Source: Escherichia phage EPIMRB01. From it: a DNA stretch of 64,000 nucleotides. Shown here piece after piece: positions 2,816-63,041 of this stretch. How positions within the stretch are numbered: the first letter of the stretch is position 1; every line of letters begins with the position of its first letter. Location: the sequence record PQ657784, one strand, 5' to 3'. The notes beneath the pieces are model-generated. The model was given only the letters and a program-made list of their open reading frames with translations. It was not told where the DNA came from and did no database searches. The translations under genes were made by a program, and so were the position numbers.

Positions 2816-4016
2816 ATTTTGTAATAATGTCAAACTGTTCTTTAAAGCAGAAGCTTGAATCTTGATGCTGATACAAAAATTCATATGCTTTTTCTCGCTC
2901 ACGGTCATAAAGAGTTCGATCAGATGACAGTTCTTTAATACGTTCAAATGTTGATTCCATGTCATTTTCATCAAACCAAATGATACCGCTATCATGCGAG
3001 GTCAAAGGAGTATTATCAACACGGAATTTTAAATTTTCGCCAGTAGATTTCCAAAATACCGGAATTGTTCCACATGCACCAAGCTCGAGATGAGTATATT
3101 CTAAAGAACGTTGTAGATATTTTTTGTCCAACTTACTCAGCTGATAACCAAATCCGGATTTACTCATACGTTCAAGCATTTCGCTATTTACATAACGGTC
3201 AAGAATTTGCGTTGGCAAATTAGGAGCAATTTTAATTTGGTCTACTTGATGAAGACGATAATACTCGTATGGAATTCCTTTTTCTTTAATAGGAATGAAC
3301 GCTGGAGAACGTTCCAGACCTTCCATAATAGTACTTAGTCCTGCAGGTTTAAGATGTTTTTCATGAAAATCAAACATCTGATAAAAACCTTTCCATGTAG
3401 TCGTACGACCAATCCAACGGTTGATATTCATGTTAATTTCAGAAACATCTTTCCAGTAGGTTGACCGAACCTTCGCAATATCCATAGGAGGCTGAAAGTT
3501 ATATACTGTCGGTGCTTCTTCAATATCATCAAACAGAGAAACTGTTTCAGGATACCATTCTTTCATCAGAACTTTATTAAAATCACCATTATCAGAATGG
3601 CTAAAAATAACATCAGCTCGACGAACAGTTTCTTCTAATCCCAAATTTCGGCGCAAAGAAAGAGAAGAATGGTCATGTTGATAAACTACAACACGAACAG
3701 AAGGTTTAATGTTATCAATAATTTTTTTATAGTTATTAATAGTGTCTTCTTCAACCGAAGTAGCAGGAACTGAATTGATAATTAGAATATCACAATCATT
3801 TACCAGCTTAAGTGTTTTATCATATTCTTTTGCCAATAAAACCGGAATTGAAAATGATTTATAATCATGCGCGCAATTACGAGTAAATGATTTATCTTTA
3901 GCATAAACCAAAGTTACTTCATGACCATTTTTAATAAACCAATCACGTTGCTCGAGTGAGAATTTTGTTACACCACAACCTTCAAGACCTCGAGCCATAA
4001 AAATACATACTTTCAT
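2814..4016 (-). CDS. a-gt: DNA alpha-glucosyltransferase (glucosylates hydroxymethylcytosine)
   Basis: 400 aa; N-terminus MKVCIFMARGLEGCGVTKFSLEQRDWFIKNGHEVTLVYAKDKSF matches T4 alpha-gt as recalled; position after gene 47. Confidence 0.88.
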   Translation of the reverse strand: MKVCIFMARGLEGCGVTKFSLEQRDWFIKNGHEVTLVYAKDKSFTRNCAHDYKSFSIPVLLAKEYDKTLKLVNDCDILIINSVPATSVEEDTINNYKKIIDNIKPSVRVVVYQHDHSSLSLRRNLGLEETVRRADVIFSHSDNGDFNKVLMKEWYPETVSLFDDIEEAPTVYNFQPPMDIAKVRSTYWKDVSEINMNINRWIGRTTTWKGFYQMFDFHEKHLKPAGLSTIMEGLERSPAFIPIKEKGIPYEYYRLHQVDQIKIAPNLPTQILDRYVNSEMLERMSKSGFGYQLSKLDKKYLQRSLEYTHLELGACGTIPVFWKSTGENLKFRVDNTPLTSHDSGIIWFDENDMESTFERIKELSSDRTLYDREREKAYEFLYQHQDSSFCFKEQFDIITK

Positions 4017-4065
4017 TTAATATCCTCTTTGTTTTGGTTTATTTTACCAAAAATTTATAAAGCAA

Positions 4066-4085
4066 TATAGGAGCCGAAGCTCCTA
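4066..4085 (-). terminator. UUCG tetraloop hairpin (ataggagc-cgaa-gctcctat)
   Basis: Perfect 8-bp inverted repeat with cgaa loop on plus strand (UUCG on minus-strand RNA). Confidence 0.4.
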
Positions 4086-4256
4086 TCCACATAATACGCC
4101 ATACAGAGGCTCATTAGAACTTTTAAATTTTATGCGCTTATATTTTATAGTTCCTTCTGCTTTAGCTTTATCATGAGACTCTTTAAAGCGTCTCATCATT
4201 TCCTCTTTAGAGGAACGAATTTTATTATAATCTATTTCAGAAGTCTGGGTGTTCAT
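4083..4256 (-). CDS. Small hypothetical protein (57 aa), below the ORF-track cutoff
   Basis: ATG at 4256 to TAG at 4083, read by eye: MNTQTSEIDYNKIRSS...LYGVLCG; fills the gap between a-gt and the next ORF. Confidence 0.3.
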   Translation of the reverse strand: MNTQTSEIDYNKIRSSKEEMMRRFKESHDKAKAEGTIKYKRIKFKSSNEPLYGVLCG

Positions 4257-4259
4257 CTT

Positions 4260-4466
4260 TCATAACTGCCACCATTTTTTGACTTGATAAGAATCAACCC
4301 ACACTTTCATATTAGGGTCTGCTCTTACAATAGGAGGATTAACTTCTTTAATTGAACTATCATGGTATTCTTTTTCAGAAATTTTCACACAAAGATGACC
4401 ATTCAAAGATTCAGTAAATCCTGCATTAATTTTAAGACGCTTGAATTTTACGTGTGTAAGCATCAA
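4260..4466 (-). CDS. Hypothetical protein, 68 aa
   Basis: ORF in compact minus-strand gene series. Confidence 0.4.
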   Translation of the reverse strand: MMLTHVKFKRLKINAGFTESLNGHLCVKISEKEYHDSSIKEVNPPIVRADPNMKVWVDSYQVKKWWQL

Positions 4467-4749
4467 TCATATCCTCAATTTGCGATCTAGTAGTCTTCCA
4501 AAGAATACTGATGAGTTCATCGTTATATGGCTGTTTTAGAATATCCCGACTTTTCTTGATAGCATATTCGTATTGAGCAAAATTATTGTTTTCAGCTGCA
4601 ATCTGAGCGTGCTTATAAAGACGATTCAGTTCGCGTTTGTTTTTAGACAATAACTTATTTGCTTTTCTTTCTGCTTCAAGACGGTTCTTTTCTTCAATAG
4701 AAGAAATAAGCTTTTCCACTTCATCATTAATTTCGGGTTTATCAGTCAT
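4432..4749 (-). CDS. Hypothetical protein, 105 aa, basic and helical
   Basis: ORF; Lys/Glu-rich helical sequence. Confidence 0.5.
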   Translation of the reverse strand: MTDKPEINDEVEKLISSIEEKNRLEAERKANKLLSKNKRELNRLYKHAQIAAENNNFAQYEYAIKKSRDILKQPYNDELISILWKTTRSQIEDMIDAYTRKIQAS

Positions 4750-27398: not shown

Positions 27399-27860
27399 TC
27401 ATTGAGTTTTAATTACTGCTTTAGAAGCCTTTCCTGGTAAACGACGACTGTTGATAATTGCCATCCTACATTGAAGTGACGGGTCTTTGAACTTCTCATT
27501 AGGTTTACAAACTGTAAATCCAAGCCAAAGATTTCCATCTGTAATTTCTAAACGTCCAGGACGATATTCAACTCCATCAATAAAATCCTCATCAATGTCA
27601 GGACGCGGAGGCATACTCAGGAATTCATTAACTTCTAAAACATGGTCTTTTATTTTATGGAATAATTCAAAAACATATGTCTCATCAATCTCCCGTTGAA
27701 TTGCACGATCAAGAAGATGTTGAGAATATTTTAGATGAAACGATGAGACCCCTGCTGCTTTTGATGCCTCACGAATCTCATTGTTAATTTGACGAAACTC
27801 CGACTCAAAGTGACGACGAAGCTTATTTCGACGGATAAAAACTTCTGTATTGATAGTCAT
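27399..27860 (-). CDS. regB: Sequence-specific endoribonuclease RegB
   Basis: 153 aa; sequence MTINTEVFIRRNKLRRHFESEF matches T4 RegB as recalled; preceded by an early promoter. Confidence 0.88.
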   Translation of the reverse strand: MTINTEVFIRRNKLRRHFESEFRQINNEIREASKAAGVSSFHLKYSQHLLDRAIQREIDETYVFELFHKIKDHVLEVNEFLSMPPRPDIDEDFIDGVEYRPGRLEITDGNLWLGFTVCKPNEKFKDPSLQCRMAIINSRRLPGKASKAVIKTQ

Positions 27861-27888: not shown

Positions 27889-27925
27889 TTATACCACAGT
27901 CAAGAGGAAAAGTAAACAGTTATTC
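27889..27925 (-). promoter_or_regulatory. T4-type early promoter for regB (GTTTAC-N17-TGGTATAAT)
   Basis: Reverse complement reads CTGTTTACTTTTCCTCTTGACTGTGGTATAAT. Confidence 0.6.
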
Positions 27926-28198
27926 TTTAAATCTAGTCAATTTATTCATAGACTTTGAAACTTCTGCACGAACCTCATGTAGATTTTTGAGCTGTTCAAG
28001 ACGCTGCGTATAGTAAGCAATTTCATCTTCTTCGAGACAGTCCTGTGAATCTTCTTTAAGATAACGTGCATAGTCCTGAAAAGCGTTACGAACTACTTCC
28101 TGGAAATCATCAAGACTTTGAATTTTCTTAGGAGCAGCAGATACACGACGAGGGGCAGTATAATACTCATAACCAAACCCTGCGCTTAATTGAGCCAT
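27920..28198 (-). CDS. Hypothetical protein, about 92 aa
   Basis: ORF trimmed to the Met giving an ATGA junction with the upstream gene. Confidence 0.45.
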
Positions 28199-28464
28199 TA
28201 GTATTTTTCCTCTGGTTGGAACACTGCACGACAAGCCCACATACTGGCTTCTTTGAGTTTCGTTTTAGCAATAGTTAACTGATCGAGGCTTTCAGCATAA
28301 TTCTTCGCGAGTTCATCGTCTTCACAGCTATCAAATGCTTCCCAAAATTCATCGTATAAAGCATCAAAGATAAGTCCTAAACGAACTTCAGCGTCTTTGA
28401 TAGCATTCACTTTACCGATTTTCTCTTCGGTATGCGGCTTATAACCCTTAATATCTTCAATCAT
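28198..28464 (-). CDS. Hypothetical protein, about 88 aa
   Basis: ORF trimmed to the Met with a GAGGAAG RBS. Confidence 0.45.
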
Positions 28465-28678
28465 ATTTGACTTCCTCACCAGTACATAAATCATATTCAA
28501 CTAAACGAATAGGTTCATGAATGCCATATCCCTGAACAGAAATTTCTGTCGTAGGATAAATTCCATCAATATCACCCATATTCCAGGCTTCATTAAATTG
28601 CTGTTCGCCTGAATTACTAAACCACTCGGCGAAAGCATTTAGCACATCTTCAGAACCTTCAATAATTATCTTTGCCAT
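28457..28678 (-). CDS. Hypothetical protein, 73 aa
   Basis: ORF. Confidence 0.45.
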   Translation of the reverse strand: MAKIIIEGSEDVLNAFAEWFSNSGEQQFNEAWNMGDIDGIYPTTEISVQGYGIHEPIRLVEYDLCTGEEVKYD

Positions 28679-29040
28679 TACAAACTCTCGGTGAAGGTAC
28701 GAGCGATAACGTCGCGCTGCTGTTCCGGAGTCAGAGAGTTAAAGCGAACTGCATAACCTGATACACGGATGGTCAGCTGCGGATATTTTTCCGGATGCTT
28801 AACTGCATCTTCCAGAGTTTCACGACGCAGAACGTTAACGTTCAGGTGTTGACCACCTTCAATTTTAACTGTAGGTTGTGTTTCAATTTCAATTTCACGG
28901 GCATGCAAACCGTAGAAAATTTCCGGGTCTACAAAAGAGTCCTCTTTAAAGGTTTTAGAGACAATAATTCGTGCTTGAATACCATCTTCAAAATAAATAG
29001 TACCTTTATGTGTGCCTTCAAGAATTTGATATGCTTTCAT
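28678..29040 (-). CDS. Autonomous glycyl-radical cofactor-like protein (GrcA/YfiD-like)
   Basis: 120 aa; C-terminal glycyl-radical motif RVSGYAVRF as in GrcA and the C-termini of PFL/NrdD. Confidence 0.75.
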
Positions 29041-29047
29041 ATAAACC

Positions 29048-29377
29048 TCAATTAGAAAATAAATTTATCCAAGATTGTTCTTTAATTAAAAATGGCTCAG
29101 AATCATATGCCATTAAACTTTGGGTGATTAGTCCTTTAAAAGGTCCATCAATAAATTCCATGGTAAAATATGGAATTTTATTCATTAACTGTGCGTTAGG
29201 AGCAGTGCACAAAACTCTGCATCCTTTGAATACACCCTTTTGTAATTTGTATTGCTTGGGATAAAATTCGCTCAAAATGTTATTATTTGCTAAAATTTCA
29301 AAATGATTCACCAATTTATTTTTAATAGTTTTTGGTGAAAAATAAAGATATTCGAAAAGCTGTGTGTCTGTCATCAT
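29048..29377 (-). CDS. Hypothetical protein, 109 aa
   Basis: ORF. Confidence 0.45.
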
Positions 29378-29973
29378 TGCATTCCAATCACAAAAAATTG
29401 AGGACGAACTGTTTCACCTGTTTCAGCATTATAGCTTCGACAACAGTGTTGTACCGTTTTAATATGGATATTGTAAATCTTATCCATATCAGGAGCTTTA
29501 ATAGGTTCGTCAATTATGTACAAGATACGAGAAAGCGATAACCCACGGAATTTATGACCTTCATTACCGATAAAACTACGGACAGAATCAGTAAATAAAC
29601 GGAATCGAATATCATCGCTAGAATAACGAGAAAATTCTTTTTCAATGTTGCCAGCAGAAATTTTAGCGTAAGCTGAAGTATTAGAAAGAACAATAACTGT
29701 TCCGCCATCATACAGCCAATTAGCGGCAAAGTTAGTCACAGCAATTGATTTACCGGATTGACGTCCACCATCTATACGAAGTGTGCAGTACTGTTTGAGC
29801 ACATCTTCCATTGGTGGAAGATAATCATTCTTACAGAGTTCTTCTACTCTAGCATCAGAATGGTGTGTAAAAGCATTCATCAGGGATAGATACGGGCCAG
29901 TTAAAAATGTTCTCATATTTTCTCTCTTAATTTTTGGGCCATTCCATGGCACATGAGTTGTCCATTCCTGCAT
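29374..29973 (-). CDS. Small P-loop NTPase with terminase-ATPase-like Walker motifs, 199 aa
   Basis: Walker A GGRQSGKS (compare gp17 SRQLGKT in this window) and Walker B ILYIIDE. Confidence 0.55.
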   Translation of the reverse strand: MQEWTTHVPWNGPKIKRENMRTFLTGPYLSLMNAFTHHSDARVEELCKNDYLPPMEDVLKQYCTLRIDGGRQSGKSIAVTNFAANWLYDGGTVIVLSNTSAYAKISAGNIEKEFSRYSSDDIRFRLFTDSVRSFIGNEGHKFRGLSLSRILYIIDEPIKAPDMDKIYNIHIKTVQHCCRSYNAETGETVRPQFFVIGMQ

Positions 29974-30051
29974 TACCCATTACCGCACTCAGGCTCGACC
30001 TTATCACAGGTTGGCGGGAATACCTCAAATGAGGTCCAGGTTGTTCCCATA

Positions 30052-30525
30052 TTATTTGAACGATTTAACGTACTGAATAGAACCTTTACTATTTACAAAG
30101 GCAATTTTACCATTTTTATTATACATTGTAGCAGTACGTTGATAGCCATAAGTTTGTTTACCAGATTGATAACCAACTAATGCAAAATTATCTTCACCCA
30201 TTTTATTCTGTTTAGCGCGAATGCGTTCATGACCATGTGCCATAAGAACCTTAGCATCACCAGTTGCAATGGATCGACGAGTTTTTTCATCTTCAACTGT
30301 ATTAACAAAGTCGTCAAATGAATCAAATTTAGCATGAGATTTATTATACAATTTTCCATCTACTGCATAATTATATCCCTGTACATCCATCTCAACTTCT
30401 GTACCATCATCCAATACAGCAGTAATTTTCTGTCCTTTTTTAAATTTCAAAAGATCAGTAAAAGATTCAGCAATAATTTGAGAATTAATAGCTGCTTCAG
30501 TGATAAATTCTTGATATGTTTTCAT
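30052..30525 (-). CDS. Internal (capsid-packaged) protein with capsid-targeting sequence, 157 aa (IPII/IPIII position)
   Basis: N-terminus MKTYQEFITEAAINSQIIAE matches the T4 internal-protein targeting leader with protease-type cleavage after I-x-E. Confidence 0.7.
   Translation of the reverse strand: MKTYQEFITEAAINSQIIAESFTDLLKFKKGQKITAVLDDGTEVEMDVQGYNYAVDGKLYNKSHAKFDSFDDFVNTVEDEKTRRSIATGDAKVLMAHGHERIRAKQNKMGEDNFALVGYQSGKQTYGYQRTATMYNKNGKIAFVNSKGSIQYVKSFK

Positions 30526-59900: not shown

Positions 59901-63041
<3,141 letters not shown>

Follow-up and report, generated by a model that had tools for sequence, protein, structure and literature searches.

Phage gene vs.8 encodes a small homologue of the terminase ATPase core and lies directly downstream of a candidate structured RNA

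The window analysed here is a stretch of 64,000 nucleotides from Escherichia phage EPIMRB01 (sequence record PQ657784). The ORF at 29374..29973 on its minus strand is almost certainly the orthologue of the T4 gene vs.8, with a product homologous to the ATPase core of the large terminase subunit (TerL) of T4-type phages. The encoded protein is 100% identical to that of phage KIT03, where the gene is annotated as vs.8, shares 84% identity with T4 Vs.8 across aa 17-199 and matches PHROG 1488 over aa 22-199 (E 4.6e-78). [quoted passage not shown] The order e/ip/(denV) - vs.8 - vs.x - regB, with the genes on the same strand, is kept in Tequatro-, Gelderland-, Kanagawa- and Dhakavirus and in one Klebsiella phage (Table 1). 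In a tblastn search, the vs.8 protein was found in 1009 of 50,697 phage records, mostly from T-even-type phages of Escherichia, Shigella, Klebsiella, Yersinia and Salmonella; the gene, which the initial annotation had considered unusual, is thus commonplace within its lineage.

The window differs from T4 upstream of vs.8. In T4 the upstream neighbour is denV, followed by ipII and ipIII, whereas in the window denV and ipII/ipIII are missing and a single ip gene is found in their place. The product of this ip gene has weak similarity to T4 IpII (E 1.7e-4), and its similarity to T4 IpIII is confined to the N-terminal 13 aa. The ORF had been placed in the position where T4 carries denV, as if it stood in for that gene. 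However, T4 carries both genes, adjoining each other, and because it has the same gene at the same place, the ORF of the window lies in its own conserved position. Comparison with the T4 vs.8/denV region hence upholds the shared position of vs.8 and not the replacement of denV, which was rejected. The ORF product has no Pyr_excise match in Pfam. The reported lack of denV was confirmed for the whole 64 kb window, in which a tblastn search with T4 DenV gave a best E-value of 4.1. The presence of denV varies in the group (479 'Escherichia' records with denV versus 550 with vs.8), and in one distant relative denV is located on the opposite side of vs.8, adjoining regB.

Table 1. Coordinates of genes, protein motifs and RNA features in the window
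Feature	Coordinates	Strand	Remarks
vs.8 CDS, likely translated form	29374..29916	-	180 aa + stop; ATG at 29916; begins MRTFLTGPYLSLMNAF...
Upstream stretch of the maximal ORF, 57 nt	29917..29973	-	overlaps the 3' part of the RNA element and the ribosome-binding region (AAGAGAG)
Walker A / P-loop GGRQSGKS, aa 69-76	29746..29769	-	terminase-type Arg-Gln; aligns with gp17 SRQLGKT (hhalign)
FRG motif, R143-G144 invariant	29542..29550	-	aligns with the pre-Walker B Arg-Gly of T4-type terminases (gp17 ...AVRGNS...)
Walker B ILYIIDE, aa 150-156	29506..29526	-	catalytic-type Glu E156; aligns with gp17 MIYIDE
GC-rich non-coding element, candidate structured RNA, 111 nt	29938..30048	-	directly upstream of vs.8
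Helix P1 (5' strand / 3' strand)	30044-30048 / 30016-30020	-	
Helix P2 (5' strand / 3' strand)	30031-30035 / 30022-30026	-	
Three-way junction, Pa	30012-30014 / 29977-29979	-	covariation
Three-way junction, Pb	30008-30011 / 29998-30001	-	covariation
Three-way junction, Pc	29993-29994 / 29985-29986	-	covariation
3' hairpin (5' strand / 3' strand)	29947-29950 / 29938-29941	-	
ip (internal-head-protein) gene	30052..30525	-	upstream neighbour, where T4 has ipIII, ipII and denV; KIT03 label 'ip'
vs.7	29048-29377	-	downstream of vs.8; ORF mapped onto the KIT03 annotation
vs.6	28678-29040	-	downstream of vs.8; mapped onto the KIT03 annotation
Small ORF	between vs.6 and vs.4	-	mapped onto the KIT03 annotation
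vs.4	about 28198-28463	-	mapped onto the KIT03 annotation
vs.3	about 27920-28197	-	mapped onto the KIT03 annotation; followed by regB
regB	27399-27860	-	after the block downstream of vs.8 (27920..29377)
gp17, large terminase of the same phage	61206..63038	+	comparison partner; Walker A SRQLGKT, Walker B MIYIDE

The 199-aa ORF first described is present in the window, but the translated protein is likely shorter, starting at M20 of this ORF, which gives about 180 aa. M20 is an invariant column in the family alignment, most homologues (173-181 aa) begin at the equivalent residue, and the annotations of two close relatives, KIT03 and AUBRB02, give vs.8 a length of 543 nt. The first 19 codons are unconserved, with 1- and 2-nt indels relative to T4 that shift the frame, and residues 1-21 of the 199-aa ORF have a pLDDT below 50 in the AlphaFold 2 (AF2) model. 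The corresponding 57 nt are probably untranslated. The longest ORF of T4 (216 aa; nts 3899-4549 of locus L001, from T4 strain 147) reads the leader stretch in a different frame from the window, and the T4 reference protein is listed with 219 aa. Since this reference model spans 64253..64912 (PMC9697503 supplement), its CDS runs through the conserved leader, and the decades-old annotation of T4 vs.8 probably hid a non-coding element beneath a coding sequence. Similar spurious N-terminal extensions are seen in some database homologues (P0004, 195 aa, and P0032, 246 aa). The gain for annotation is that the longest-ORF models, of 199 aa here and 216-219 aa in T4, intrude into a conserved non-coding element.

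This element occupies the central 111 of the 135 nt that separate ip from vs.8 and has a GC content of 52%, compared with 35% for the window; its T4 counterpart is located at about 64,795-64,935. Its alignment with T4 begins exactly at the stop codon of the differing upstream gene, and it is still conserved where the identity of Vs.8 falls to 35-40%. It contains an invariant core, ACCUGURAUAAGGUCGAGC...GCGGUAA.GG, and was detected by blastn in 1012 phage records. The window holds one copy of the core, as a single covariance-model match at 29970-30020 (62.4 bits), while two tandem copies are found in Kanagawaviruses and in one other contig. Tandem loci were observed in Edwardsiella phage PEi20 (L004, 2819-2980), in L049 and L055, and in L052 (827-963).

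The core is predicted to fold into a three-way junction formed by Pa, Pb and Pc, which is supported by covariation across 47 distinct sequences. In these, pair 10-45 occurs as AU (22), UA (11), UG (7) or CG (6) and is never unpaired, pair 30-37 as CG (41) or UA (6), and pair 7-47 as CG (29), GC (6), GU (4) or UA (2). The covariation score of the pairing is 0.263, compared with 0.095 after shuffling, and none of 500 shuffles reaches that value; when the pairing partners are slid along the alignment, the score is at most 0.153. The G-U pairs of the junction are compatible with the strand of vs.8 (minus) and not with the other one. Compensatory changes are also found in the 5' flanking hairpin, which occurs as GGGAA/UUCCC, GGGAG/CUCCC, AAAGG/CCUUU, AAAGCU/AGCUUU and GGAAC/GUUCC, and the second copy at tandem loci keeps the helices, with a change from A-U to G-C in Pb and from GC/GC to GUC/GAC in Pc. 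The folding energy of the single sequence is no better than that of shuffled sequences (z -0.26), and RNAalifold on a MAFFT alignment recovered only part of the structure.

No Rfam 15 family was plausibly matched by the copy of the window (E up to 10) or by the Vequintavirus and Dhakavirus copies (E up to 1). The element tested as neither a tRNA nor a tmRNA, no sigma-70-type promoter or terminator stands out, and its core sequence is not printed in any of the papers searched. It is apparently an undescribed phage RNA and a candidate for a new structured one. Candidate roles are a stable small RNA processed together with tRNAs or a cis-acting leader.

The distribution of the core extends beyond that of vs.8. 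In T-even-type loci the distance from the core to vs.8 downstream is about 90-100 nt, increasing to about 450-500 nt at loci with an ip insertion; some Klebsiella-type contigs have an ip gene separating the element from vs.8. The core is also present in Vequintavirinae, and a relaxed pattern search retrieved it from a 360-kb jumbo phage contig, from phage contigs of about 46 kb and from others. There is no vs.8 gene near the core in the Vequintavirinae, jumbo phage and about 46-kb phage loci. Most loci outside the T-even type have tRNA genes near the core and on the same strand, so that it lies within or next to clusters of tRNA genes; it follows a tRNA-Glu by 53 nt, is flanked by tRNA-Glu and tRNA-Met, or precedes tRNAs by 160-550 nt. 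Two further matches, found among 185,579 bacterial and archaeal genomes, were rejected as chance: in each, the sequence departs from the element immediately past the seed, and about 9 matches to the 19-nt pattern are expected in 596 Gb. Conversely, some distant vs.8-like genes have no element beside them, so vs.8 and the element are separable modules. An obligate pair of Vs.8 and the RNA was rejected, each being found without the other.

The element marks a recombination boundary of a variable region. Where the window has one ip gene instead of the ipIII-ipII-denV block of T4 (30049-30525 in the window, 2396-3872 in L001), homology to T4 is regained exactly with the first nucleotide of the RNA element, and the genes upstream of the element vary in other genera as well (ip, denV, small ORFs). 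In Vequintavirus contigs (L007, 2559-3017; L031, 222-629), the ORF just downstream of the element has a very basic start, ...KKRRRRGRPLKEESN, a stretch that looks arginine-rich or AT-hook-like, and a perfect promoter-like site, TTGACA-17-TAAAAT, lies between the element and this ORF in rV5-type phages. One of these Vequintavirus-type contigs also carries a group I intron (Rfam RF00028, 81 bits; L031, 3115-3418) about 3 kb from the element, which is unrelated to vs.8.

The Walker motifs reported for the ORF, GGRQSGKS and ILYIIDE, are present and vary little or not at all among 22 aligned homologues, which reach down to 38% identity. Residues D68-G-G-R-Q-S-G-K75, R143-G144, L151, I154, E156 and P157 are invariant, I153 is nearly so, and position 155 is Asp or Glu. 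Because these columns are invariant across the 22 homologues, the motifs do not reflect a chance resemblance in the sequence. Vs.8 keeps the residues for ATP binding and, probably, for hydrolysis. The spacing of the two motifs also resembles that of gp17, as suggested earlier: the distance between motif starts is 81 aa in Vs.8 and 90 aa in gp17. In total, 36 columns are invariant in the family, all catalytic motifs included. This bears on the notion that vs.8 is an inert relic, the decaying and functionless fragment of a duplicated terminase gene. The protein is a truncated form of a larger enzyme with no known phenotype, which would suit a relic. However, invariant catalytic motifs among such divergent homologues, retention in about 1000 genomes while neighbouring genes come and go, and detection of the Vs.8 protein early in T4 infection (PMC9697503 supplement) make this explanation highly improbable.

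A relationship with terminase is indicated by profile comparisons. Aligned with hhalign against 19 T4-type TerL ATPase regions, the Vs.8 family matches with a probability of 95.7% (E 9.2e-9). The match covers 133 columns, beginning ahead of Walker A and ending beyond Walker B, and in it the Walker A, Arg-Gly and Walker B motifs each fall on their terminase counterparts. Against gp17 alone, the E-value is 4.9e-4. PHROG 2 (terminase large subunit) is matched by all 22 family members (best E 3.9e-8) and Pfam Terminase_6N, weakly, by 21 of them (best E 6.8e-5). The same homology was found independently by PSI-BLAST and structure comparison (PMC13601566). The proposal of a miniature relative of the terminase ATPase core encoded outside the packaging operon is therefore upheld by hhalign, by PHROG 2 and by the published work.

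The relationship is nevertheless remote. The single sequence gives weak Pfam matches to AAA_14 (E 0.032) and Terminase_6N (E 0.056, 13.5 bits compared with a cutoff of 22), and no Pfam model is matched at its curated cutoff in either the single-sequence or the family scans. NCBIfam returned no family for Vs.8, and a profile search of PDB sequences gave nothing significant, the best match being the SRP receptor (E 0.058). In a HMMER scan of 1.84 billion representative proteins, 50 relatives were matched, all of 66-259 aa and with no full-length terminase among them. As judged from these profiles, Vs.8 is homologous to the large terminase yet lies outside the curated family boundary.

The product is a single ASCE/RecA-like P-loop domain of about 180 aa. 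Its AF2 model contains one domain with five strands (mean pLDDT 79.5), and the C-terminus lies about 43 aa past Walker B, at the strand that follows this motif. Vs.8 corresponds to ATPase subdomain I of gp17 (Terminase_6N, PHROG 2), gp17 having 610 aa compared with 180 aa for Vs.8. The family alignment and hhalign reveal no equivalent of gp17 residues 1-140, and Q143 of gp17, the adenine-reading Gln that is invariant in the terminase alignment, has as its counterpart L52 in an unconserved column. As the chain stops about 43 residues after Walker B, it has neither subdomain II nor the RNase-H-like nuclease/translocation domain, as seen in both the alignment and the AF2 model. With the N-terminal region, the adenine Gln, subdomain II and the nuclease domain absent, Vs.8 is very probably not a packaging motor on its own. 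From the established architecture of TerL, we infer that it would be no DNA translocase by itself. A role as a DNA-translocating accessory factor, as once suggested, conflicts with the absence of subdomain II, of the nuclease/translocation domain and of an equivalent of gp17 1-140.

By structure, the model resembles a broader set of ATPases. Foldseek against the PDB returned generic ASCE matches alone, with TM below 0.5, the best of which are RecA1 domains of RNA and DNA helicases. Unlike SF2 helicases (DEAD-box, RIG-I-like, Mfd), Vs.8 has one domain and not two tandem RecA-like domains, no SF2 helicase motif beyond Walker A and B was found in it, and the profiles favour terminase (Terminase_6N in 21 of 22 family members, compared with a weak Pfam DEAD match in 3 of 22). 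Many uncharacterised phage proteins of 145-175 aa in BFVD share the Vs.8 fold (Foldseek E 1e-4 to 1e-7); they come from T4-type phages of Aeromonas, Vibrio, Acinetobacter and Proteus and from jumbo phages (201phi2-1, phiRSL1 and Phabio). Judging from these models, small ASCE ATPases may be more widespread among large phages.

These likenesses raise the alternative that Vs.8 is an independent enzyme, a minimal RecA-like NTPase acting early on nucleic acid or on the nucleotide pool, for whose present job the terminase ancestry would be irrelevant. Such an enzyme might be stimulated by RNA or DNA, or might be partnered with the structured RNA encoded just upstream. The strict conservation of the catalytic residues, the helicase RecA1 domains as top structural matches, the fold shared with small uncharacterised proteins, some from jumbo phages, and the RNA element directly upstream in nearly all T-even-type genomes are in its favour. 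However, helicase activity requires a second domain to partner a single RecA domain, and the lack of helicase motifs beyond Walker A and B and the few weak DEAD matches also count against this alternative. Moreover, Vequintavirinae, a jumbo phage and 46-kb phages have the RNA but no vs.8 beside it, and vs.8-like genes occur without the RNA. This alternative was considered distinctly unlikely.

The packaging ATPase gp16 of phi29 is, like Vs.8, a small terminase-type ASCE ATPase (Foldseek 5hd9, E 4.9e-3), and phi29 has pRNA where vs.8 has a three-way-junction RNA encoded adjacent to it. The comparison is one of analogy: the RNA of the window type occurs without vs.8, vs.8-like genes occur without the RNA, and vs.8 is an early gene. 

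Timing and location bear on a possible role in packaging. In T4, vs.8 is early at both the RNA and the protein level, according to a time-resolved omics study (PMC9697503 supplement). In the window, gp16 and gp17 are encoded at 60728-63038 on the plus strand, in the 16/17 operon, whereas vs.8 is found outside this operon, 31 kb away, on the other strand and among early genes. The terminase of T4 is a late protein. Vs.8 could modulate packaging by co-assembling or competing with gp17 (or with gp16 or the portal) through ATPase-ATPase contacts, thereby tuning or blocking the terminase. Such a role would draw on the homology with the ATPase core of gp17, in which the Arg-Gly and Arg-Gln motifs are shared, and some records do name the protein 'DNA packaging protein' or 'terminase large subunit', though these are automatic names. 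Because vs.8 is early and the terminase late, as are the proheads, the earlier suggestion of a regulator or competitor of packaging fits poorly. Moreover, equivalents of the N-terminal 140 aa and of subdomain II of gp17, which are interaction regions, are missing, vs.8 never lies in the packaging operon in the loci compared, and no packaging phenotype is on record in the literature searched. A modulator of packaging is thus quite improbable.

A link to host immunity comes from published work. Evans et al. (Nat Commun, 3 Aug 2026, PMC13601566) retrieved vs.8 when T4 proteins were screened with AlphaFold 3 against EcAvs2, a sensor of terminase. [quoted passage not shown] Co-expression of vs.8 with EcAvs2 led to toxicity, and AlphaFold 3 places vs.8 with ATP in the EcAvs2 pocket for the terminase ATPase domain (PMC13601566). 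The authors suggested that such activators of Avs2 may be anti-defence proteins. The non-terminase activators Ksap1 and Ksap2 are likewise small proteins of phages, built of a central beta-sheet flanked by helices; they are predicted in the terminase pocket of Avs2 and are limited to particular phage lineages (PMC13601566). In the description given there, vs.8 is set apart from Ksap1/2 as a sequence homologue of the terminase ATPase with Walker motifs. The gene and its homology to terminase were hence already in the literature in August 2026.

Two genes downstream of vs.8 in T4, vs.4 and vs.3, are established counter-defence genes that encode nucleotide sponges. T4 Vs.4, encoded downstream of vs.8, is a cGAMP sponge, alias Acb2 (PMC10449767), and TadIV-1, a sponge that counteracts type IV Thoeris, was amplified from T4 with primers named vs3 (PMC13243611). 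In the latter study, each of Vs.3 to Vs.8 was produced from a plasmid with 'the promoter of vs.8' driving expression. A link between vs.8 and these sponge genes would be guilt by association.

Taken as a whole, the observations are best explained, with a fair degree of probability, by a homologue of the terminase core that is no motor and may serve as an early look-alike at the interface with immunity. According to this explanation, Vs.8 would not translocate DNA; it would act early in infection, at the phage-host immunity interface, most likely by resembling, in its ATP-loaded state, the terminase ATPase domain. For some terminase-sensing or other host factors it could serve as a decoy or inhibitor, and sensors of the Avs2 type would in turn have learned to detect it. 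The look-alike role and the decoy or counter-defence mechanism are themselves tentative, having been given clearly less than even weight. The sole functional result, the activation of EcAvs2 by vs.8 (PMC13601566), harms the phage, contrary to the expectation for a simple decoy. In addition, the invariant catalytic Glu and the Arg-Gln suggest real turnover of ATP, which counts against a passive mimic since such a mimic would not need it. A more specific form, in which Vs.8 would be a dedicated early mimic of the terminase ATPase that pre-occupies or mis-assembles host sensors (Avs-type, Upx-type) and so shields the late packaging enzyme, seems unlikely. Were this mimic reading true, EcAvs2 would represent a sensor that has come to recognise the mimic. 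An extension of the mimic reading, in which Vs.8 would also work with the upstream structured RNA, was considered less likely still.

Because vs.8 and its homology were already published, the contribution of the window to this protein is one more vs.8 orthologue and a corrected gene model. The upstream RNA is the more novel part of the locus and the one most worth an experiment. With regard to the protein, the terminase belongs to the small set of universal targets of bacterial innate immunity. A phage-encoded version of its ATPase core that is produced early is relevant to the ways in which phages deal with sensors of this kind, or in which the sensors extend their range.
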